Made by a program: the position numbers and the translations under genes
Origin: Escherichia coli
GTDB taxonomy: Bacteria; Pseudomonadota; Gammaproteobacteria; Enterobacterales; Enterobacteriaceae
DNA length: 64,000 nucleotides
Direction: 5' to 3' (one strand)
Assembly (NCBI RefSeq): GCF_003019035.1
Contig: NZ_CP027447.1
The notes under the pieces: generated by a model
The model's database searches: none
What the model was told of the DNA's origin: nothing
What the model saw: the letters and a program-made list of their open reading frames with translations, nothing else
Shown here: positions 8,237-35,916 of the stretch, in pieces
How the letters are laid out: every line of letters starts with the position of its first letter
Numbering within the stretch: position 1 is the first letter of the stretch

Positions 8237-8303
8237 CGCGCGCTTATTACTTTGATAGTACTCGGGTTATAATATGGATGACTATCTATCTCGGAGAATG
8301 TGC

Positions 8304-9956
8304 ATGTCATTGGACTATATTAAAGAACAGTTGTCAGACTTTATTTCATCTGCAGAACCTGAGGTAATGGCTATTCAGGGTGAATGGGGGATTGGGAAAA
8401 CCTATACTTGGAATACTTTCTTAAAGGAAAATAAAAATAAGATTGCATTTAATAGATATAGTTACGTCTCTCTTTTTGGTGTTAATTCATTGGACGCATT
8501 AAAATATTCCATCTTTGAAAATACAATTACAAAAGATTTTATTGGAAATAAACCTAATTTAAAAACAGCAACACAAAATACAAAGGGACTTCTTGAATCC
8601 TGCACTAGAAAGACCGCTCGTTTGTTAAAAGAAACACCTGTTGTGAAAAATTTCGCTACGACACTTGAGTCAATGTCATTTATGTCAATTACTAATGTTA
8701 TTGTAGTCATAGATGACTTAGAAAGACGTGGTAAAAATTTAGAAGTGAAAGATGTCTTAGGGTTGGTTTCTTTATTGAAAGAACAAAAAAATTGTAAGGT
8801 GGTTCTTTTACTTAATAATGGGACAAGTGGTATGGATGATTACTCCACTTATAAAGAAAAGGTTATTGATAGAGAGATTACCTATAACCCTACGCCAGAA
8901 GAATGTGCAGCTATAGCATATAAAAATAATTCTGATGTTCATAAATTATTAAGCAAATACTCCATTTCTCTGGGTATTAAAAATATTCGGATACTGAAAA
9001 AAATAGAGCGGTTTTTGCTAGCCTTGTTACCTGCTATTAACGTTAATTTTGATAAAATTGCAAATGAAGTCGCACGCTCCTTAACTTTGTATTGTTGGAG
9101 TCATTACGCATTTACTCCAGATGGAGATGTACCATCATTGGAATATATTAGAAATATGAGAAATATCTATATGCGTGATGAAAAAGAGGATGGAAAAGGA
9201 AAAAAATGGCTTAATACTTTGCTTATATATGGTTATAAAAAAACAAACGAACTTGATGAAGTCCTTATAGACATGGTTAAGCATGGATATATTGATATGA
9301 ACAATTTTCAAAGGCAAGTAAGTCTAAGAAATGATGAACTTATCCGTGATAGTAAGCGAGGTTCACTGTTTGAAGCATGGAAGCTTTTCTATAATTCATT
9401 TGAAGATAACCGAAATCAGGTTGTTGATAATCTATATCAAGCGGTGGTTGGTGGGATAGAGTATGTAACTCCAAGTGACTTGGATAGTGTTGTCGGACTG
9501 TATAGAGATTTAGATGAAAATATTAAAGCAAGTGAATTAATAAGTAAATTTATTAATTACGGCAATGATGCTCTTAAGGAATATGTCCAATCTATTTACA
9601 TGAATGTTCATCCTATAAAAGATGCTGAGTTAAAGTCAAAAATCCAAGATTATTCTATTACTTTAAATCTGGATGGTTCTATAAAGGATGTTCTAATAAA
9701 ATTATCAAGTCAGAATGGTTGGTCTGATAGGCACGAGGAAATATTGGATGCTGCCTCAGAGGATGACTACTATGATTTATTTAAAAAAGTCATTCTTGAA
9801 GGTGGTGATTCAATAATAGCCACTGCTCTTAAGTTTGGTGGGTATAGCAATGGTTCAGATAGAATGAAACGCATCGGAGAAAAAGCGAGAAATGCTTTGA
9901 TAAGAATTGGAAATGAGTCGAAGATTAATAAAATACGTGTTAGACGGTATTTGTAA
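8304..9956 (+). CDS. KAP-family P-loop NTPase (standalone, ~550 aa)
   Basis: Walker A GEWGIGKT (KAP signature GxWGxGK[ST]) and Walker B VIVVIDDLERR; no obvious transmembrane insert; AT-rich; perfect TATAAT at 8268-8273 upstream. ATG 8304 chosen for RBS spacing; the track ORF begins at 8274. Confidence 0.8.
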   Translation: MSLDYIKEQLSDFISSAEPEVMAIQGEWGIGKTYTWNTFLKENKNKIAFNRYSYVSLFGVNSLDALKYSIFENTITKDFIGNKPNLKTATQNTKGLLESCTRKTARLLKETPVVKNFATTLESMSFMSITNVIVVIDDLERRGKNLEVKDVLGLVSLLKEQKNCKVVLLLNNGTSGMDDYSTYKEKVIDREITYNPTPEECAAIAYKNNSDVHKLLSKYSISLGIKNIRILKKIERFLLALLPAINVNFDKIANEVARSLTLYCWSHYAFTPDGDVPSLEYIRNMRNIYMRDEKEDGKGKKWLNTLLIYGYKKTNELDEVLIDMVKHGYIDMNNFQRQVSLRNDELIRDSKRGSLFEAWKLFYNSFEDNRNQVVDNLYQAVVGGIEYVTPSDLDSVVGLYRDLDENIKASELISKFINYGNDALKEYVQSIYMNVHPIKDAELKSKIQDYSITLNLDGSIKDVLIKLSSQNGWSDRHEEILDAASEDDYYDLFKKVILEGGDSIIATALKFGGYSNGSDRMKRIGEKARNALIRIGNESKINKIRVRRYL

Positions 9957-15589: not shown

Positions 15590-16054
15590 ATGAAGTTTGT
15601 GGCGCCAGAACAGGCACCGGAACAGGCGGAAATCATCAGGAATACGCCGTTCTGGCCTGATGTGGATCTGTCGGAGTTCCGCAGTGTGATGCGCACTGAC
15701 GGTACGGTGACGCAGCCGCGTTTAAAGCAGGTTGCGCTGTCGGCAATTTCGGAGGTCAACGCAGAGCTGTATGAGTTTCGCAGATGCCAGCAGATGCTGG
15801 GGTATGCCTCGCTGGCAGAGGTTCCGGCGGAACAGCTGGACGGCAAAAGTGAGCGCGTTCAGCACTATTTCAACGCGGTTTACTGCTGGGCACGCGCCAT
15901 GCTCAACGAACGTTACCAGGACTATGACGCCACGGCATCCGGTGCGAAGCGGGGCGAGGAACTGGCGGAAGCAAGCGGTGATTTATGGCGTGACGCCCGC
16001 TGGGCCATCAGCCGGGTGCAGGATGCGCCGCACTGCACAGTGGAGCTTATCTGA
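15590..16054 (+). CDS. head completion/stabilisation protein (P2 gpL homolog)
   Basis: IRNTPFWPDVD resembles the gpL N-terminal region; ATG 15590 has a GGAGAAAG RBS; alternative GTG start at 15527. Confidence 0.75.
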   Translation: MKFVAPEQAPEQAEIIRNTPFWPDVDLSEFRSVMRTDGTVTQPRLKQVALSAISEVNAELYEFRRCQQMLGYASLAEVPAEQLDGKSERVQHYFNAVYCWARAMLNERYQDYDATASGAKRGEELAEASGDLWRDARWAISRVQDAPHCTVELI

Positions 16055-16257
16055 TGAAAGTGCGTGCGCATCAGTATGACACGGTGGACGCACTTTGCTG
16101 GCGTCATTACGGGCGCACGCAGGGTGTCACGGAGCAGGTACTGAAGGCAAATCCGGGGCTTGCCGAATACGGCCCCTTTTTACCTCACGGGCTGCAGGTG
16201 GAGCTGCCGGACATTCCGACCACCACCACCGTGCAGACCGTCCAGCTATGGGACTGA
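16054..16257 (+). CDS. tail protein X (P2 gpX homolog)
   Basis: 67-aa ORF between L and the lysis cassette. Confidence 0.7.
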   Translation: MKVRAHQYDTVDALCWRHYGRTQGVTEQVLKANPGLAEYGPFLPHGLQVELPDIPTTTTVQTVQLWD

Positions 16258-16260
16258 ATT

Positions 16261-16476
16261 ATGACGCTTGAGCGAATCAGCGCCTTTATCACGTATTGCA
16301 TCGCCGTCGTGCTGGCCTGGCTGGGCGATTTGTCCATCAAGGATGCCTCAACGCTGGGCGGCCTGATGATTGGTGTGCTGATGATGGCTATCAACTGGTA
16401 CTACAAACACAAAGCCTACCAGCTTCTGCGCGACGGGCAGATCTCGCGGGAGGACTATGAATCCATCAATCGTTAA
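16261..16476 (+). CDS. holin (small two-TMD, pinholin-like)
   Basis: 71 aa with two hydrophobic segments and a charged C-terminus; immediately precedes the endolysin. Confidence 0.7.
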   Translation: MTLERISAFITYCIAVVLAWLGDLSIKDASTLGGLMIGVLMMAINWYYKHKAYQLLRDGQISREDYESINR

Positions 16477-16972
16477 ACGCTGCCTTGTCGGGGCCGTGCT
16501 GGCTATTGCTGCCACGCTGCCGGGTTTTCAGCAGCTTCACACCTCCGTGGAGGGGCTGAAACTGATTGCCGATTACGAAGGCTGTCGTCTGCAGCCGTAT
16601 CAGTGCAGCGCGGGTGTCTGGACCGACGGCATTGGTAATACATCTGGCGTCATTCCAGGCAAAACCATTACGGAACGACAGGCAGCGGAAGGGCTGATCT
16701 CCAACGTGCTGCGTGTGGAGCGGGCGCTGGAAAGATGTGTGAAGCAACAGCCGCCACAAAAGGTGTATGACTCGGTGGTGTCGTTTGCCTTCAACGTGGG
16801 GACAGGCAATGCCTGCAGCTCCACGCTGGTGAAATTGCTCAATCAGCGGCACTGGGCGGATGCGTGCCGACAGTTGCCGCGCTGGGTTTATGTGAAAGGT
16901 GTGTTTAATCAGGGGCTGGATAACCGCCGTGCGCGGGAGATGGCCTGGTGCCTTAAAGGAGCTGGACTATGA
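16457..16972 (+). CDS. SAR endolysin (T4-type lysozyme, GH24-like)
   Basis: N-terminal hydrophobic SAR-like segment (CLVGAVLAIAATLPGF) followed by a lysozyme E...D...T catalytic region (EGLKLIADYEGCRLQPYQCSAGVWTDGIGNT). Confidence 0.85.
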   Translation: MNPSIVKRCLVGAVLAIAATLPGFQQLHTSVEGLKLIADYEGCRLQPYQCSAGVWTDGIGNTSGVIPGKTITERQAAEGLISNVLRVERALERCVKQQPPQKVYDSVVSFAFNVGTGNACSSTLVKLLNQRHWADACRQLPRWVYVKGVFNQGLDNRRAREMAWCLKGAGL

Positions 16973-17397
16973 CGCGTGCGCTGGCAGTAGTGGTGGCGCT
17001 GGCACTCGTTACGCTGGGCTGGCAGTCGTGGCGGCTTAACAGCGCCAGCCACACCATCGAAACGCAGCGCGCGGCGCTGAAAAGTAAAGCGCAAGAACTG
17101 ACGAAGAAAAACAGCCAGCTGATCGGTCTGTCCATTCTGGCTGAAACCAACAACCGGGAGCAGGCGCGGCTCTACGCTGAAGCAGAACAGACCAGCGCAC
17201 TGCTGAGACAACGACAACGCCGGATCGAGGAACTGAAACGTGAGAACGAGGATTTACGCCGCTGGGCTGATACTCCTTTGCCTGCTGACATTATCCGGCT
17301 GCGGGAACGTCCGGCACTCACCGGAGGTGCAGCTTACCGTCAGTGGTTGTCCGCGAGTGACGCCGTGTCGGCTGGAGCAGGCAGCGCCGCGCACTAA
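16969..17397 (+). CDS. LysB (Rz-like inner-membrane spanin)
   Basis: 142 aa; N-terminal TM segment then coiled-coil-like region; follows the endolysin. Confidence 0.7.
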   Translation: MTRALAVVVALALVTLGWQSWRLNSASHTIETQRAALKSKAQELTKKNSQLIGLSILAETNNREQARLYAEAEQTSALLRQRQRRIEELKRENEDLRRWADTPLPADIIRLRERPALTGGAAYRQWLSASDAVSAGAGSAAH

Positions 17398-17530
17398 CGG
17401 TGATCTGAACGCATTGCTGGATGAAACGGAGGCCGCCTGGGCGGTCTGTGCAGACAAAGTGGACATGATTATTGCGTGTCAGGAGCGAAACAGTGAACAA
17501 ACCACAATCCCTGCGCCACGCCCTCAATAA
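17240..17530 (+). CDS. LysC (Rz1-like outer-membrane lipoprotein spanin), overlapping LysB in another frame
   Basis: Lipobox LTLSGC after a signal-like segment; GTG start; embedded in/overlapping lysB as in P2. Confidence 0.6.
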   Translation: MRTRIYAAGLILLCLLTLSGCGNVRHSPEVQLTVSGCPRVTPCRLEQAAPRTNGDLNALLDETEAAWAVCADKVDMIIACQERNSEQTTIPAPRPQ

Positions 17531-17924: not shown

Positions 17925-18375
17925 ACTGCAGAAAGTTGACGACTGGCTGAGTGCCTTGCTGGCGAATCTGGAGCCAGCCGCAAGAAGCCGCATGGTGCGT
18001 CAGCTGGCGCAGGAGCTGCGCCGGACACAGCAGCAGAATATCAGGATGCAACGCAACCCTGACGGCAGCAGTTATGAACCGCGCAAGGTCACAGCGCGCA
18101 GTAAAAAAGGCCGCATCAAACGTCAGATGTTTGCAAAGCTGCGCACCACAAAATACCTGAAAACCGCCGCCAGCGCCGACTCTGCCAACGTACAGTTTGA
18201 AGGCAAGGTGCAGCGCATTGCCCGCGTTCACCATTACGGCCTACGTGATCGCGTCAGCCGCAAAGGACCTGAGATCCGTTACGCAGAGAGAAAATTGCTT
18301 GGATTAAATGGATGTGAAAAATTAATTCGAAAAATATTCATTATGAATTTATTTTCTGGGGATTGGCTGGCATAA
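17917..18375 (+). CDS. tail completion / virion morphogenesis protein (P2 gpS homolog)
   Basis: 152-aa ORF; last gene before the AT-rich cargo; stop codon lies inside a terminator hairpin. Confidence 0.75.
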   Translation: MAELQKVDDWLSALLANLEPAARSRMVRQLAQELRRTQQQNIRMQRNPDGSSYEPRKVTARSKKGRIKRQMFAKLRTTKYLKTAASADSANVQFEGKVQRIARVHHYGLRDRVSRKGPEIRYAERKLLGLNGCEKLIRKIFIMNLFSGDWLA

Positions 18376-18397
18376 AAGCCAGCCTTTATTTTTTTAT
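18365..18397 (+). terminator. rho-independent terminator after S
   Basis: GGCTGGC-ATAAAA-GCCAGCC hairpin followed by TTTATTTTTTT. Confidence 0.55.
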
Positions 18398-19251
18398 GTG
18401 ATGGCCCCTATCTTTTGATTGTAATAACTATAATCAGCATGTTCTTCTGTATAAAAAATCTCAAATGCAGACAAGATGTTTGCGTAAAAACTATCCTTGG
18501 ATATAGAGGTTTTTTTATTGATGGATGCCAAAAAGTTTGTTATAAATCTTAATGATGCTGAGAAAAGAAAGTGCCCTTTCACCCAATGATTTATAGATGT
18601 ATTTTCTGGGAATTGAATGTTGTTTTTTTCTGCCAAACCATTAGTAGTAAACGATTCAGGTAGTCTATTGATATATTCATCTATTTTTTTCTTGCATATA
18701 TTGTATGAATTTCTTGATTGCATAAAACGATCACAGGAATCACCAATTACGGAGCATCCTAATTTATTTAAATGATTGTGAATATCTAGTATTATTAAGT
18801 TCTCAATGTTGCTATAGAAGTTAGAAAGCCAATTTCCTACATCTATTTCCTGCATTTTTTTTGTGCAAAAACGGCCTGTGTTTTTGAGTATGTGTGATAT
18901 GATTTTTTCATCAATGATTGTGTTTTCTATTGAATATCCCTTTGTGTAAATAATATTTGTATGCTTTACTATGTTGTCAGAAAAATGGTTTAGATCCGAA
19001 TCTCTGGCAACTATGGCGTTTATTTCTCCTGAGGTTATTTTTTCGATATATGGTTGTAAAGCTTCACATCCACCAACATCTTGAACTTCTACATTAAAAC
19101 GACCATTTTTTTTAAAAATTATTTCCCAAAAAGCAATGTCATCTTCACCTTCAACATAGACCATAATATCAGCATCATAAAATAAACTGATCACATTTTC
19201 CGCTTCATTAGACCAAGAAAAGTTTTCTGCATTAGAATCATTGATTAGCAT
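18394..19251 (-). CDS. Toprim/DUF4435-like protein (AriB-like), 285 aa
   Basis: Toprim-like acidic motifs VYVEGEDD (conserved Glu) and IVARDSD (DxD); overlaps the upstream ATPase gene by 14 bp; very AT-rich. Confidence 0.65.
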   Translation of the reverse strand: MLINDSNAENFSWSNEAENVISLFYDADIMVYVEGEDDIAFWEIIFKKNGRFNVEVQDVGGCEALQPYIEKITSGEINAIVARDSDLNHFSDNIVKHTNIIYTKGYSIENTIIDEKIISHILKNTGRFCTKKMQEIDVGNWLSNFYSNIENLIILDIHNHLNKLGCSVIGDSCDRFMQSRNSYNICKKKIDEYINRLPESFTTNGLAEKNNIQFPENTSINHWVKGHFLFSASLRFITNFLASINKKTSISKDSFYANILSAFEIFYTEEHADYSYYNQKIGAIT

Positions 19252-20494
19252 TGACTAATCTCTCCATATTGAAAATGGCGTTTTTATATTTAGATGCAAC
19301 TTCAGGAGAATGGGTTGCAGCAATAATTTGTGCATTAGGATTTAATTTTTTTATGGCAGGGATAATATTTCTTTGCCATTGAATATGTAAGGAAAGCTCA
19401 GGCTCATCAGTTAGGAAAATATATTGTTGCCCTCTTTGTAAGAGGGTCTCAATGAATAAAATTAGCAGTTGTTTTTCACCAGAAGATAAACTTTCTAAAA
19501 CTATTGGCCCATAGGTGTTATTTATGACTAACAATCCCGATTGAAAATGAAATTCTTTATCGGTGATAAAATTTCTTAGTATGCTTAAGAATTGTTCTAT
19601 TGGAGAAAATATTTTTGATGTTTTCTCTTTTGAAGTTAATGACATTTTGATTATTTTTTGTGTTTTTCTCAATGCTTCGATCGAACGAATATCAAAGCCT
19701 CTTTCACTTTTATTCTTTAATTCTGAAATGGTATTATTAATTGTTTCAACATGAAAGCTGATTTTTTTACGAATGTTTTGATCAATAGCATTTAACTGTG
19801 TGTATGCATTAAGGAGGTTTTGTTTTTCTTCCTCTTTGTTAAAGTTAATGTTGTAAGCAGGATTCTCCATATCTTCCTTGCTATAAAGTATTGATGCCAG
19901 AACCTCTTTTTGAAGTTCTAATGCGATATCTCTGGCTTTCTGGGATAGTTCAAGTTGATATTTTGTAAGTTCCTGTATTAATTCTGATAACTTATAGTCA
20001 ACAGGGTTGATAAAACGAGAGCCATATTTATCTTTAACTTCAAAATCATCACTATTTCTTAATCTGTAAACAGATAAAGAAGAAAGCGAGACTAGTTTTG
20101 CTAGTTCTGTTCTTAGTTCTTCTGTTTCATCATGCACTCTACGTCTATAACTAAGAGATATTCTTCTATCATCAGTGTTAAATAAACGAATTGTGTGTTT
20201 TTTAGATGAAAGCTGATATTCTATTTTGGAAAATGGAGATGTATCGCTTTCAAGTTTTTTGACTTTGATTGTTTTTGTCTTTTTTTTATCTTTAAGTTTT
20301 ATTTCGGCACTATTGAAATCAGCATTGTTAATACTGTCCAAATCAAGGGATAATATTGAGTGCAGAAGGTTCATAAAGGTTGTTTTACCCGTGCCATTTC
20401 GGCCTATAATAATGTTTACATCATCATTAAATGAGCAGGAACAGTTTAATCGCTGCCAAAAGCCATTAATTGTGACGCTTTGAATTTTATACAT
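19238..20494 (-). CDS. ABC/SMC-like ATPase (AAA_15/AAA_21-type, AriA-like), 418 aa
   Basis: Walker A GRNGTGKTT, ABC-signature-like LSSGEKQ, Walker B YIFLTDEPELSLH, H-loop IIAATHSPEV, with a charged coiled-coil-like insert between them. Confidence 0.75.
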   Translation of the reverse strand: MYKIQSVTINGFWQRLNCSCSFNDDVNIIIGRNGTGKTTFMNLLHSILSLDLDSINNADFNSAEIKLKDKKKTKTIKVKKLESDTSPFSKIEYQLSSKKHTIRLFNTDDRRISLSYRRRVHDETEELRTELAKLVSLSSLSVYRLRNSDDFEVKDKYGSRFINPVDYKLSELIQELTKYQLELSQKARDIALELQKEVLASILYSKEDMENPAYNINFNKEEEKQNLLNAYTQLNAIDQNIRKKISFHVETINNTISELKNKSERGFDIRSIEALRKTQKIIKMSLTSKEKTSKIFSPIEQFLSILRNFITDKEFHFQSGLLVINNTYGPIVLESLSSGEKQLLILFIETLLQRGQQYIFLTDEPELSLHIQWQRNIIPAIKKLNPNAQIIAATHSPEVASKYKNAIFNMERLVNANQ

Positions 20495-25016: not shown

Positions 25017-26054
25017 TTATATTTGCCTACCTCCTAATAAAATGTGTGAGGTGTATTTGTTGGTTTTCAATAACCTTGCTACAATTATACAGGTGGTTAC
25101 AATAAGGAAAACAAATGAAGGGGTTATGATGAGGTTATATATGAGTGGATTTTCGCATAGGTTATTAATGTTCACGTATGCCTCTATTCTGTGAAAAATA
25201 AACGACGAGATTATATAGATGGGAAAGGTGTAAGTACCGACAAAGGATGTGGCTCGTATAAATAAATTATTTTTCGTTGATAAAAATGTATAAGCATATA
25301 TAAGCGATATGCTTCCGGCGAAGCCAATGAAGTAGCGAAATATAATAATGAATGATTGATGCCAGAAATCAACATTCTCATATGTCATTTTAGATATGTA
25401 AATATAATACTCTCTATTCCATAGGAGAAGCATACCAATCCATGTTAATACGGCTAACACACCAATTTTGTGCCTATTTCTAGAGGCAAAATCTAAAATG
25501 CGATGGGCGGATATACCAGCGATAAAATAAGGGGCCATAAATTTAATTTTGTCCATATTCCAATCATCTCCATATGCAAGGGATATACTAAATATCAGTA
25601 AATAAAGCACCACAGAATATTGTTTGCTTATTGAGTGACAAATAGTATAAACAATAGATACTGCAAAGAGTGCAGAAAGGAACCAGAAGGCGTAGATGGC
25701 TCCATATCTAATATTTATTAAATTTATATCTCTTCCCACAAAAATGGATTCAGCAATGAACCATGCAATGGATGGGATTATTAACTGCATGAATTTTCTT
25801 TTGATAATTGATGATGGTTTTCTCTTGAGAGAAAAATAGAAAAGATAGCCGCTAAGCAGCATAAAAAATGGCATGTGGAAGCTGTAAATGGTAATAAATA
25901 ATGGGTTGTCAAAAAAATTGAAACTATCTTTTTTTACAAACTGAATTGAATGGCCCCACACGACAAAAATTATAGCTAATCCTTTCATTGAGTCTATAAT
26001 GGAATTTCGAGTGCTGGGTGTCTCTGTTATAATAAGATGTGGTTCGTTTTTCAT
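25017..26054 (-). CDS. acyltransferase family 3 integral membrane protein (O-antigen/LPS O-acetyltransferase-like)
   Basis: 345 aa, highly hydrophobic multi-TM; N-terminal region GLAIIFVVWGHSIQF typical of acyltransferase-3; very AT-rich; opposite strand to tail genes. Confidence 0.75.
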   Translation of the reverse strand: MKNEPHLIITETPSTRNSIIDSMKGLAIIFVVWGHSIQFVKKDSFNFFDNPLFITIYSFHMPFFMLLSGYLFYFSLKRKPSSIIKRKFMQLIIPSIAWFIAESIFVGRDINLINIRYGAIYAFWFLSALFAVSIVYTICHSISKQYSVVLYLLIFSISLAYGDDWNMDKIKFMAPYFIAGISAHRILDFASRNRHKIGVLAVLTWIGMLLLWNREYYIYISKMTYENVDFWHQSFIIIFRYFIGFAGSISLIYAYTFLSTKNNLFIRATSFVGTYTFPIYIISSFIFHRIEAYVNINNLCENPLIYNLIITPSFVFLIVTTCIIVARLLKTNKYTSHILLGGRQI

Positions 26055-33995: not shown

Positions 33996-34230
33996 CGCTG
34001 CCGCCATTATGTCGCCATCGTTAAAAAACAGTGCTTCTAATATCATGATTTTAAAAGGCATAAATTTTAGGCAACAAAAAACCCACCAACCTTGAACCGA
34101 AATGGCGGGGTTGATGGGCTCCACAAAATGGGGACATCAAAGAAAAGCAGTGGCACTAATTAAGACTGATGCCCTGCGGAAAAGTTCTGCGGTTGTGCAA
34201 AAAAATTTCATTTTCAGGGCAACTTCAGTT

Positions 34231-35916
34231 TTATCCTAATCCTGGCCATACCATGACGATGATTGTCCCTGCCAGCGTCAGCAGGACGTTGGCGATTGCA
34301 TAGGTGCCCGCATAGCCCAGCGCCGGGATGTTACTGCGAGCTGTATCACTGATGATCTCCATTGCCGGCGCGCAGGTGCGTGCGCCCATCATTGCGCCGA
34401 ACAACAGTGCGCGGTTCATTCGCAATACATAAGCACCGAACAAGAAGCAGATAACCACTGGCACCAGACTGACAATCAATCCGGCAATCAACATTTGACC
34501 GCCAATCGCGCCCAGGCCGTTATTAATACCGCTACCGGCGCTCAGACCAACGCCTGCCATAAACACCATCAAGCCGAACTCTTTCACCATGCTTAATGCA
34601 CCTTGCGGAATGTAACCGAAGGTCGGGTGGTTAGCACGCATAAAGCCCAGCATAATTCCGGCGAATAACAACCCGGCAGCGTTCCCCATGCCGAAACTGA
34701 ATGTGCTGAACTGGAAGGTGATCATCCCGATCATCAGCCCAATAACAAAGAAGGCGCAGAATGCCAGCAAGTCAGTGACCTGGCTGTGAATCGAGATAAA
34801 GCCGATGCGATCGGCGATGGTTTTTACCCGGCGGGCATCGCCGCTGACTTGTAAAACGTCACCTTTGTTAAGCACGACGTTGTCATCAATCGGCATCTCA
34901 ATCTGGCTACGTATGACGCGGTTAAGGAAGCAACCGTGATCGGTCAACTTCAGTTGTGCCAGGCGTTTGCCAACAGCGTTATGGTTTTTAACGACCACTT
35001 CTTCAGTGACGATTCGCATGTCGAGAAGGTCACGATCGAAAACTTCTTTGCCATTACGGAAACTGGGATCGAGTCGGGCGTGGGCGTCGGGATAGCCTAC
35101 CAACGCTATTTCATCGCCCATTTGTAGTACGGCATCACCGTCTGGATTTGCCAGAATCCCGTTACGCCGAATACGTTCAATGTAACAGCCAGTTTGTCGA
35201 TAAATACCCAGTTCACGCAGATTTTTGCCGTCGGTCCAGGCCACCAGCTCCGGGCCGACGCGGTAGGCGCGGATCACCGGCAAATAAACCTTACGGTTGG
35301 CATCTGTGTCCAGGCCACGTTCGCGGGCGATTTGCTGGGCGCTGGTCTGTAAGTCCTGATGCTGCAATTTCGGCAAGTAACGCGCACCAACAATCAAACT
35401 CACCAGACCGATTAAATAGGTTAAGGCATACCCGAGGCTCAGATTATCCAGTGCCAGTGAGAGCTGCCTGCTTTCCATGCCGGAATGACGCAGTGTATCG
35501 CCAGCACCGACCAAAACCGGTGTTGACGTCATAGAGCCTGCTAACATACCGGCCGTCAGGCCAATATCCCAGCCAAACAGCTTACCTAACCCTAAGGCGA
35601 TGACCAGCGCACTGCCAACCATCACCAGTGCTAACATTAGGTAATTTTTCCCATCGCGAAAAAAAATGGAAAAAAAGTTCGGTCCGGCTTCGACCCCGAC
35701 GCAGAAAATAAACAGCATAAAGCCAAGATTAAGCGCGTCGGTGTTAATGCTGAAATGTTGTTGGCCTAATAACAGCGATACGACTAAAACGCCAATGGAA
35801 TTACCCAGTTGGATCGAACCAAGTCGTAATTTCCCGAGACATAGCCCAAGCGCGAGGACCACAAATAATAACAGAATGTAATTCCCATTTAACAATTCGG
35901 CGACGTTTATATTCAC
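34231..35916 (-). CDS. ybjL: putative transporter YbjL (AAE antiporter family)
   Basis: 561-aa membrane protein with two TrkA-C-like soluble domains; position and length as in E. coli K-12. Confidence 0.85.

Follow-up and report, generated by a model that had tools for sequence, protein, structure and literature searches.

A predicted lysis module with a P1 Lyz-type SAR endolysin, a two-transmembrane holin and overlapped spanin genes in a P2-family prophage of Escherichia coli

Introduction

How would a prophage with P2-type structural genes lyse its host if its lysis genes are other than the canonical P2 pair of holin Y and endolysin K? This question is raised by positions 16261-17530 of a 64,000-nucleotide stretch of Escherichia coli DNA (hereafter the window). 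For this region, a reading made from the sequence alone had proposed a signal-arrest-release (SAR) endolysin together with a pinholin, followed by lysC embedded in lysB. Export by Sec in the absence of signal-peptidase cleavage, as well as release upon depolarization or by a pinholin, has been shown for the SAR endolysins P1 Lyz, R21 and Mu gp22 and in part for HP1 Lys (PMC7312051, PMC9239132). Here we examine the four genes of the cassette, compare them with known lysis systems and propose how they would act together.

Results

Genomic context and occurrence of the cassette

Four late-gene ORFs, all of them intact and with coupled or overlapping starts, occupy 16261-17530, and every element that the sequence-only reading had described was found at the positions it had given. 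The cassette sits within the late operon O-N-M-L-X-...-R-S, between tail gene X and tail-completion gene R, and a full P2-type structural gene set flanks it. In our view the region is very probably the lysis module of a P2-family (Peduoviridae, Elveevirus/Fels-2-like) prophage that acts by the mechanism proposed below. The canonical P2 Y/K pair was considered for the first two genes and rejected, the match to K having an E value of 0.014 over 24 aa only and the match to Y being weak and local.

A terminator-like hairpin of the intrinsic type, with a T-run, is located on the + strand 3' of gene S (18365..18384), outside of the cassette. Both + strand terminator hits fall on this one hairpin, its position matches that of the annotated P2 O-operon terminator, and the late operon with the lysis genes likely ends here. 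An attenuator/terminator is annotated inside lysC in P2, and no convincing + strand candidate for it was found in 16261-17530. A search for repeats within the cassette gave short matches at chance level only. An Rfam scan of the whole window returned RybB (34073-34151) as its sole match and nothing inside the cassette. When the first 9 kb were searched for an attL copy of the rybB-proximal sequence, no copy of 14 nt or more was obtained, and the left boundary of the prophage is possibly beyond the window.

Judged by PGAP annotation, 1037 of 5426 complete E. coli genomes (about 19%) carry the cassette. Escherichia phage Cartapus, for which a complete 33-kb genome record exists, has a cassette with 97% nucleotide identity that likewise lacks lysA, and the cassette of Klebsiella phage KP12 is about 95% identical. 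For KP12, a resemblance of the endolysin to P1 Lyz, its SAR domain and the overlapped spanins have already been described (PMC9902359). Fels-2, Cartapus and KP12, all of them Peduoviridae, agree with the window cassette in gene order and protein families, and the Fels-2 record already contains the notes '2 transmembrane domains; putative holin', 'similarity to Lyz [P1]', 'P2 LysB-like' and 'P2 LysC-like'. The four-gene module is already known, having been annotated in Fels-2 and by PGAP and described for KP12. In the literature on Peduoviridae pinholins or Fels-2 lysis genes, we found no functional study of exactly this cassette, of its holin or of its endolysin.

A two-transmembrane holin of the HP1 family

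The first gene (16261..16476, + strand, ATG start) encodes a class II holin of 71 aa, recognized by hydropathy, Pfam and PHROG. Hydropathy places its two transmembrane domains (TMDs) at aa 6-22 and about 29-48; the C-terminal tail is basic, and an N-in/C-in topology is predicted. There is a single ATG, and because an in-frame TGA is found two codons upstream of it, the gene has no dual start. The protein passes the Pfam model PF16080 of the HP1 holin family (36.8 bits as compared to a gathering threshold of 28.8), and it agrees with that family in its two TMDs, in its size (about 70-80 aa in the family) and in the position of its gene directly upstream of the endolysin gene, with which it overlaps by 20 nt. 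Furthermore, it matches PHROG 20 (holin; E 5e-26), it is 79% identical to the 'putative holin' STM2716 of Fels-2, and PGAP names its orthologue 'HP1 family phage holin'; NCBIfam contains no model for it. The small two-TMD holin that had been described in front of the endolysin is therefore present, and it differs from the P2 Y type as had been claimed, Y being a three-TMD protein of PF04550. In pairwise comparison, holin and HP1 Hol are 21% identical with a non-significant E value of 0.2, so that the link between them is one of profile similarity.

Does this holin make small or large holes? Experiments on the P2-like phage HP1 led to the report that HP1 Hol is a pinholin and HP1 Lys a SAR endolysin, and HP1 Hol caused no release of beta-galactosidase (PMC7312051). 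The hol-lys genes of HP1 also resemble the window cassette in several ways: a two-TMD holin without dual start, of the same Pfam family, overlaps a P1-Lyz-like SAR endolysin with an EGC...C motif and an anchor Cys, and a LysB-like gene comes next. However, in HP1 the cassette follows the tail tube gene, whereas in the window it lies between X and R, and the holins differ in their first TMD, that of the window protein being much more hydrophobic.

The same endolysin and spanins could also be served by a canonical large-hole class II holin, with depolarization alone releasing the SAR endolysin. Several observations speak for such a holin. TMD1 is strongly hydrophobic, with a mean Kyte-Doolittle value of 2.12 over 17 aa; HP1 Hol has 1.44, and the phage 434 pinholin of S21 type stays below 0.8 (the S21 and R21 proteins of phage 21 were represented by phage 434 homologues in our comparisons). 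The score for the phage 21 S family (PF04971, 24.0 bits) is below its gathering threshold of 26, the similarity to HP1 Hol lacks pairwise significance, and the protein weakly resembles P2 Y, a canonical holin, over the last two TMDs of the latter (E 2e-4). In addition, SAR endolysins work with canonical holins as well, an example being P1 LydA (PMC9025707). In contrast, the Pfam threshold of the HP1 holin family is passed, the family member HP1 Hol released no beta-galactosidase, 71 aa and two TMDs resemble known pinholins, and pinholins have been reported in most phages with SAR endolysins (PMC9239132). We consider a large-hole holin a serious possibility, although a somewhat doubtful one.

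The claim of a pinholin was not supported in the form in which it had been made: the protein belongs to PF16080, but it has a strongly hydrophobic TMD1 and stays below the P21 S threshold. Nor does the presence of a SAR endolysin imply a pinholin, as P1 Lyz, a SAR endolysin, functions with a canonical holin and with a pinholin (PMC9025707). By three features, namely family membership, a weakly hydrophobic TMD1 and a dual-start motif, the window holin is set apart from S21-type pinholins. Since its TMD1 is strongly hydrophobic, unlike the SAR-like TMD1 of S21, the activation mechanism of S21 probably does not apply to it. Going by homology, the most likely role of the holin is that of an HP1-family trigger that makes small, pinholin-like holes, and this is the weakest step of our explanation.

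An endolysin of the P1 Lyz type

The second gene (16457..16972, + strand, ATG start), which shares 20 nt with the end of the holin gene and ATGA with the start of lysB, encodes an endolysin of 171 aa with GH24/T4-lysozyme fold. Its lysozyme domain (PF00959, 134.6 bits) covers aa 39-161, and all NCBIfam hits were below threshold. Alignment with P1 Lyz, which the sequence-only reading had suggested as a check, was carried out, and P1 Lyz proved to be the top sequence match in the PDB (1XJT, E 3e-26; 1XJU, E 8e-25). An AF2 model of the endolysin (pLDDT 93) has full-length 1XJT as its top fold match, with a TM score of 0.85 over 174 aligned columns, and the next-best fold matches are the SAR endolysins of DLP12 and phage 21.

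From the alignment with 1XJT, the catalytic motif is E41-x8-C50-x5-T56 with C43 at position E+2 (EGCRLQPYQCSAGVWT; 16577..16624, + strand), near-identical to the motif of P1 Lyz (EGCRRDPYMCPAGVWT). Among the aligned homologues, E41 and T56 never vary, and conservation is at least 90% for C43 and for C50. Upstream of the lysozyme domain, K7-R8 are followed by the uncharged segment C9-F24 (CLVGAVLAIAATLPGF; 16481..16528, + strand), delimited by hydropathy and by the conservation of Cys9, in which 7 of 16 residues are Gly, Ala or Thr. In sequence and hydropathy, this corresponds to the published picture of a SAR segment, in which basic residues precede a TMD that is weakly hydrophobic and has many Gly, Ala, Ser and Thr residues (PMC9239132).

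The SAR-segment Cys is present in 17 of 19 P1-type homologues, HP1 Lys and Fels-2 included, and absent from the R21-type enzyme of phage 434. Similarly, an N-terminal Cys was encountered in 26 of 28 cluster representatives that combine a hydrophobic N-terminus with the C/C motif, and in none of the four (0/4) that have Asp in the motif. The window endolysin possesses the three cysteines that mark the P1 Lyz class, namely a SAR Cys (C9), the Cys at E+2 (C43) and the triad Cys (C50). As C43 and C50 also occur in soluble homologues that have no N-terminal anchor, this pair by itself is not diagnostic of P1-type regulation.

Like P1 Lyz, the window endolysin combines the E-8-C-5-T motif and the Cys at E+2 with a Cys in the N-terminal SAR segment. 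However, the two enzymes are only about 34-36% identical, Cys13 of P1 Lyz aligns with L15 whereas the SAR Cys of the window enzyme is C9, and about 11 residues are inserted in P1 Lyz behind the NVG motif. Also, the lysis genes of P1 are scattered and include several holins (PMC9025707). HP1 Lys is 34% identical to the window endolysin (E 2e-27). With phage 21, the cassette has in common the order holin, SAR endolysin, spanins, the two-TMD holin and an anchored endolysin of GH24 fold. In contrast, the R21-type triad contains Asp instead of Cys and comes without regulatory cysteines, the S21-type holin has a weakly hydrophobic TMD1 and a dual-start gene, and the spanins are embedded (Rz/Rz1).

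The N-terminus might instead be a cleavable Sec signal peptide, making the endolysin a secreted enzyme like Lys44 of phage fOg44. Its hydrophobic core is short, and A16-I17-A18 resembles an AXA cleavage site; predictors, for their part, often call SAR domains signal peptides, as they do for HP1 Lys (PMC7312051). However, Cys9 is conserved among homologues down to 35-40% identity, which would be expected only if the segment stays in the mature enzyme and therefore argues against cleavage. Moreover, P1 Lyz, the closest solved relative, keeps its N-terminal domain, packed on the catalytic body (1XJT), and it is this full-length structure that the AF2 model fits. Cleavage is, in our opinion, very unlikely. 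Sequence, fold model, motif and conserved cysteine together support the assignment of the protein as a putative P1-Lyz-type SAR endolysin. The N-terminal hydrophobic segment in front of a lysozyme region, which had been the ground for proposing a SAR endolysin, was confirmed by hydropathy, by PF00959 and by the match with 1XJT; the view that the enzyme differs from the canonical P2 K also holds.

Overlapped genes of the putative LysB and LysC spanins

The third gene (16969..17397, + strand, ATG start) encodes LysB, a putative inner-membrane (i-) spanin of 142 aa. Its TMD is N-terminal (aa about 4-21), and its periplasmic domain is helical and charged. LysB matches NCBIfam TIGR03495 phage_LysB (175.1 bits as compared to a cut-off of 92.75) and PHROG 89 (E 5e-47), and is 36% identical to P2 LysB over 76 aa.

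LysC, the putative outer-membrane lipoprotein (o-) spanin of 96 aa, is encoded in the +1 frame of lysB (17240..17530, + strand) and starts with GTG. Its signal peptide MRTRIYAAGLILLCLLTLSGC, which includes LLCLLTLSGC, carries the lipobox L18-S19-G20-C21 with Cys21 at 17300-17302. The +2 residue is G22 and not Asp, as befits a putatively lipidated o-spanin. Just upstream, the lysC frame is closed by a TGA at 17234-17236, so that no start other than GTG 17240 gives a product with the signal peptide, and GAGG at 17227-17230 may plausibly serve as ribosome-binding site. LysC matches NCBIfam NF038368 P2_Rz1 (124.7 bits as compared to 27) and Pfam LysC (PF23793), and it is 42% identical to P2 LysC in an alignment that begins at residue 1. 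The signal peptide and the lipobox Cys are kept in Fels-2, Yersinia, Klebsiella, Pseudomonas, PSP3, EtG and P2.

The sequence-only reading had let its spanin claim depend on whether relatives keep the lipoprotein frame, and this frame is conserved in 276 phage records. This conservation, together with the P2_Rz1 and Pfam LysC matches, rules out a chance ORF, and the out-of-frame lipoprotein with GTG start that had been noticed is a genuine, conserved LysC. Over 158 nt (17240..17397, + strand), the DNA codes for LysB in frame 0 and for LysC in frame +1. When the window was compared with Fels-2, a Klebsiella phage and Yersinia MLG42, the substitution rate at third positions of lysB fell from 0.22-0.42 in the part that is lysB only to 0.135-0.19 in the overlap.

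Clearly, lysC is not embedded in lysB, as had been stated, but overlapped with it: it starts inside lysB and runs on for 133 nt past the lysB stop (17397), up to its own stop at 17530. It reaches 38 nt into tail gene R if R starts at 17493, a position mapped from PGAP annotation. With a type II i-spanin of the LysB family, a lipoprotein o-spanin and this geometry, the pair is of the overlapped kind according to the published definitions of embedded and overlapped spanins (PMC6139136). Of the proposed Rz/Rz1-like arrangement, the out-of-frame overlapping lipoprotein is retained, but the architecture is that of P2. As in lambda Rz/Rz1, there are two components, a type II inner-membrane protein and an outer-membrane lipoprotein in the +1 frame; however, Rz1 lies wholly inside Rz. 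In P2, where the order is Y-K-lysA-lysB-lysC, the cassette also lies between X and R, LysB and LysC are homologous to those of the window, and lysC has a length of 291 nt, begins about 270-280 nt after the lysB start and shares 38 nt with R. The remaining P2 genes differ, K being unrelated to the window endolysin and lysA having no counterpart in the window.

Absence of lysA

Most relatives of the cassette carry a lysA gene, the absence of which from the window had been missed by the sequence-only reading. Between endolysin gene and lysB, Fels-2, KP12, 500465-1 and the majority of E. coli copies have a lysA-like gene for a membrane protein, which is 378 nt long in 500465-1; this gene occurs in 780 E. 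coli genomes as compared to 1037 with the cassette. A simple deletion of lysA was rejected, as the divergent stretch begins at the 3' end of the endolysin gene and reaches into the first (5') third of lysB. This pattern points to a recombinational module swap, not a clean deletion, as the probable origin of the lysA-less form. Since the cassette has neither lysA nor a dual-start holin, it is without a recognizable antiholin. That it might be a decaying, non-functional remnant of a cryptic prophage, with the loss of lysA as a deletion scar, would fit the frequency of lysA-like genes elsewhere in E. coli but is hardly credible given four intact ORFs with coupled or overlapping starts, the complete P2-type structural genes around them, phage Cartapus with the same lysA-less layout at 97% identity, PSP3, which also passes directly from endolysin gene to lysB, and the annotation of P2 lysA as non-essential.

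Discussion

Proposed course of lysis

By homology with P1 Lyz, the endolysin would be exported by Sec and tethered to the inner membrane in an inactive form by its weakly hydrophobic N-terminal SAR segment, with K7-R8 on the cytoplasmic side and C9-F24 within the bilayer. Meanwhile, the two-TMD holin of 71 aa would build up in the inner membrane until it triggers at a set time and the membrane potential collapses. After depolarization, the SAR segment would exit the bilayer and, as in P1 Lyz, the thiol of C9 would reshuffle a disulfide that involves C43 and the catalytic C50. Such an isomerization would free the E41/C50/T56 active site, and the endolysin would then cut the cell wall. LysB, anchored in the inner membrane, and LysC, as outer-membrane lipoprotein, may form a periplasm-spanning complex which, by analogy with related spanins, would disrupt the outer membrane after loss of the wall.

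One may speculate that holins of the Fels-2/Elveevirus type trigger SAR endolysins in a way unlike that of the phage 21 pinholin, their TMD1 being too hydrophobic for an exit from the bilayer, and that the single-start holin of the lysA-less cassette sets the timing of lysis without an antiholin. We regard this idea as unlikely; if it were true, the triggering of two-TMD holins could be studied in this prophage as a minimal natural system.

Start sites in public records

Beyond correct annotation, the importance of the cassette is small; the module is common. The P1-type cysteine pattern and the lysA-less variant might be of interest for endolysin engineering and lysis timing, and neither is a new type of system. 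Two of the starts are frequently wrong in public records. In the Fels-2 RefSeq record and in vB_EcoM-813R9, the start of the endolysin gene is mis-called such that the anchor segment is cut off. Similarly, PGAP (with a CTG start) and several phage records mis-call the start of LysC and cut off its signal peptide. These mis-called starts mask the very features that define the lysis mechanism.

Organization and distribution of the lysis cassette

Four close-packed genes on the + strand make up the lysis cassette at window positions 16261-17530. The holin gene (16261-16476; ATG start, 71 aa) is separated by 3 nt from the stop of the preceding tail gene X (16054-16257; PF05489) and overlaps by 20 nt with the endolysin gene (16457-16972; ATG start, 171 aa), whose stop in turn shares an ATGA overlap with the ATG start of lysB (16969-17397; 142 aa). 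The fourth gene, lysC (17240-17530; GTG start, 96 aa), is read in the +1 frame of lysB. The cassette is surrounded by P2 late genes (Q, P, O, N, M, L, X, R, S, V and further), and the operon probably ends 3' of gene S at a hairpin followed by a T-run (18365-18384), the place where the O-operon terminator of P2 is annotated. An Ogr-like zinc-finger ORF is encountered near 33.8 kb.

A region of 1.6 kb displays 97% identity to Escherichia phage Cartapus (Peduoviridae, Elveevirus) and 95-96% identity to phages 500465-1 and KP12 and to many Klebsiella P2-like prophages. The cassette was found in 1037 of 5426 complete E. coli genomes, and all four genes are named by PGAP in E. coli genomes. The system is not new: the entry for Fels-2 lists a holin with two transmembrane segments (TMDs), a P1-Lyz-like endolysin, LysB and LysC, and for KP12, whose cassette is about 95% identical to that of the window at the nucleotide level, a signal-anchor-release (SAR) endolysin and overlapped spanins were described (PMC9902359). 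For a P2-like phage, experimental precedent comes from HP1 (PMC7312051).

The endolysin resembles P1 Lyz

The endolysin is a GH24 lysozyme (PF00959, 134.6 bits) and hydropathy analysis revealed an N-terminal hydrophobic segment, C9-F24, which follows K7-R8 and in which Gly, Ala or Thr account for 7 of 16 residues. The closest solved structures by sequence are those of P1 Lyz, 1XJT (E 3e-26) and 1XJU (E 8e-25), and the catalytic stretch EGCRLQPYQCSAGVWTDGIGNT is nearly identical to EGCRRDPYMCPAGVWTDGIGNT of P1 Lyz. The motif E41-x8-C50-x5-T56, with C43 at E+2, matches the P1 pattern and differs from the Asp-containing pattern of R21. An AlphaFold2 model (pLDDT 93, pTM 0.88) was nearest to full-length P1 Lyz 1XJT (TM 0.85 over 174 columns), followed by the SAR endolysins of DLP12 and phage 21, and the fit to the truncated 1XJU form was much poorer (TM 0.58). 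A relationship to P2 K was rejected, the enzyme being unrelated to K.

We also examined whether the anchor segment is kept in the mature endolysin. Among representatives of 50%-identity clusters, a Cys in the N-terminal segment was present in 26 of 28 sequences with a hydrophobic N-terminus and the C/C motif and in 0 of 4 with the triad Asp. When 20 sequences were aligned, 17 of 19 P1-type members, HP1 Lys and Fels-2 among them, had Cys at the position of Cys9, whereas the R21-type enzyme of phage 434 has Ala, and this conservation reaches down to homologues of 35-40% identity. This conservation of the N-terminal Cys favours a SAR domain that stays on the mature enzyme and has P1-type thiol chemistry over a signal peptide that is cleaved off, although C43 and C50 are present also in soluble homologues without an anchor. 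The mechanism of P1 Lyz was reportedly described by Xu et al. in 2005 (Science 307:113; cited in PMC9025707).

The holin and the pinholin assignment

Two hydrophobic segments (aa 6-22 and about 29-48) were recognized in the holin by hydropathy, and an in-frame TGA is located two codons upstream of its ATG; there is therefore no dual start. The holin clears the threshold of the Pfam HP1 holin family (36.8 bits vs 28.8) and stays just under that of the phage 21 S family (24.0 vs 26). It shows 79% identity to the "putative holin" of Fels-2 and is present in 83 phage records, beside an annotated lysozyme/endolysin gene in those sampled. HP1 Hol reportedly kills cells without beta-galactosidase release and is needed for HP1 lysis and was thus called a pinholin, and HP1 Lys is reported as a SAR endolysin (PMC7312051). 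Family-level support from HP1 for a pinholin in the window is weak, because the two holins are 21% identical and their pairwise comparison was not significant.

The sequence-only reading had derived a SAR endolysin and a pinholin from the hydrophobic N-terminus of the endolysin and the small two-TMD holin. A SAR endolysin alone does not imply a pinholin; P1 Lyz functions with the canonical holin LydA as well as with the pinholin LydD (PMC9025707), and Mu uses a releasin (PMC9239132). The passed HP1 family threshold speaks for the assignment, whereas the missing pairwise significance and a strongly hydrophobic TMD1 (mean Kyte-Doolittle 2.12 over 17 aa, compared to 1.44 in HP1 Hol and <0.8 in the SAR-like TMD1 of the S21-type pinholin of phage 434) speak against it. 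On balance, we lean slightly towards a pinholin, whose mechanism would then be of another type than that of S21.

LysB and LysC as a putative overlapped spanin pair

LysB has one N-terminal hydrophobic segment by hydropathy and passes the equivalog model TIGR03495 (175.1 bits vs 92.75). LysC carries a classical lipoprotein signal peptide, MRTRIYAAGLILLCLLTLSGC, followed by Gly, and passes NF038368 P2_Rz1 (124.7 vs 27), its residues 5-88 corresponding to profile positions 2-85. With P2 LysC it shares 42% identity in an alignment starting at residue 1 (MRTRIYAAG vs MRTKIFAAG), and the LysB proteins are 36% identical over their C-terminal halves. The ORFs and hydrophobic segments of the sequence-only reading were right, except that lysC had been called embedded in lysB: it extends past the lysB stop by 133 nt and into tail-completion gene R by 38 nt (PF06891; start at 17493, mapped from the PGAP annotation). 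P2 has the same geometry (lysC of 291 nt, starting about 270-280 nt into lysB, with a 38-nt overlap with R) and is the type example of the overlapped class in the definitions of Kongari et al. (PMC6139136).

The lipoprotein frame proposed by that reading proved to be conserved. By tblastn, the lysC frame was detected in 276 phage records, in 236 of them with at least 80% query coverage, with hosts including Escherichia, Klebsiella, Salmonella, Yersinia, Erwinia, Pseudomonas and Burkholderia, and the eight relatives inspected all have an open frame with conserved signal peptide and lipobox Cys. In the window, a TGA closes the frame three bases upstream of GTG 17240, and ACG stands where Fels-2 has an ATG, two codons into lysC; GTG 17240 is therefore the sole start giving the signal peptide. 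When the window was compared with Fels-2, a Klebsiella phage and Yersinia MLG42, the third-position substitution rate of lysB was lower within the overlap (0.135-0.19) than outside it (0.22-0.42), albeit with small numbers. These comparisons show dual constraint on the lysB-lysC overlap.

Window LysB contains zero cysteines, whereas P2 LysB has two near the C-terminus (aligned segment ACTDASDCPQ), and LysC has four periplasmic cysteines. A spanin complex linked by disulfides must therefore be built otherwise than in the lambda Rz/Rz1 model.

Start calls in public records strip functional N-termini of endolysin and LysC. In the Fels-2 RefSeq (L013 2197-2706) and 813R9 (L003 1997-2470) records, the endolysin starts 11-13 codons late and the SAR segment is thereby lost. 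A PGAP-annotated LysC (L004 5283-5531) has a CTG start 14 codons inside the signal peptide, and in several phage records LysC is annotated at just 38-57 aa or unannotated.

Proposed course of lysis

Gene structure, family membership, motif conservation, fold and dual-frame conservation are direct results, and the functional steps are all taken over from homologues. Lysis would most likely proceed in four steps. After late, presumably Ogr-dependent, transcription, the inactive endolysin would be exported via Sec and tethered to the membrane. Triggering of the holin would depolarise the membrane, freeing the SAR segment for thiol-disulfide activation as in P1 Lyz, and once the wall is degraded LysB-LysC would disrupt the outer membrane.

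Absence of lysA and mosaic structure of lysB

In most relatives (500465-1, 813R9, KP12, Fels-2, Yersinia MLG42 and Klebsiella phages), a lysA-like gene lies between the endolysin gene and lysB; that of 500465-1 (378 nt) encodes a 125-aa product with several hydrophobic stretches. Its absence from the window and from Cartapus had been missed in the earlier reading. Among E. coli genomes, the lysA-like gene occurs in 780 and the cassette in 1037, and roughly a quarter of cassettes therefore lack this lysA. P2 lysA is annotated as non-essential, affecting timing, and PSP3 lacks the gene too. With neither lysA nor a dual-start holin, the cassette has no recognisable antiholin.

A clean lysA deletion was ruled out, since the divergent stretch starts at the end of the endolysin gene and reaches into the first third of lysB. 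lysB (16969-17397) is a mosaic relative to 500465-1 (L002 2846-3274), with 2/155 nt differing in the lysB-lysC overlap and 2/136 nt in lysC, whereas the 5' two-thirds of lysB differ at 17-28% of positions. This pattern indicates a recombination breakpoint inside lysB, tied to lysA presence or absence.

Many public E. coli sequences (P0014 and P0032, proteins from related records, and many others) contain a 296-aa ORF that joins endolysin residues 1-163 to the multi-TMD LysA-like protein of 125 aa. At the junction (equivalent to L002 about 2455-2475), the sequence is consistent with the loss of one G in ...GCCTGGTG..., and P0014 is found on 30 contigs, complete genomes among them. This endolysin-LysA ORF may reflect a genuine frameshift of clonal origin, an artefact of sequencing or a regulated fusion.

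Possible integration site and other prophage cargo

Just past the Ogr-like gene lie the RybB sRNA gene (34073-34151, - strand; Rfam 104 bits) and a host Asp-Al_Ex/TrkA_C permease gene (34231-35916, - strand); the right end of the prophage therefore abuts the rybB 3' end, which suggests integration at rybB. In the first 9 kb of the window, no matching attL repeat of at least 14 nt was found.

A 560-aa KAP-family P-loop NTPase (8274-9956, + strand; PF07693; PADLOC candidate defence model PDC-S49, 4e-25) adjoins portal gene Q on the border of the early/accessory region. A PARIS-like defence pair (18394-20494, - strand) comprises an AriA-like AAA_15/AAA_21 ATPase (19238-20494; PADLOC AriA 2e-38) and an AriB-like DUF4435 protein (18394-19251; PADLOC AriB 2e-21), and its GC content is about 30% versus about 58% for flanking phage genes. 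The pair occupies the place of P2 orf30, flanked by tail genes S and V, where relatives carry different cargo. At the place of P2 Z/fun, with tail-fibre genes on one side and the sheath gene on the other, an Acyl_transf_3 acyltransferase gene (25017-26054, - strand; PF01757, 5e-27) is probably an O-antigen-modifying lysogenic-conversion gene.
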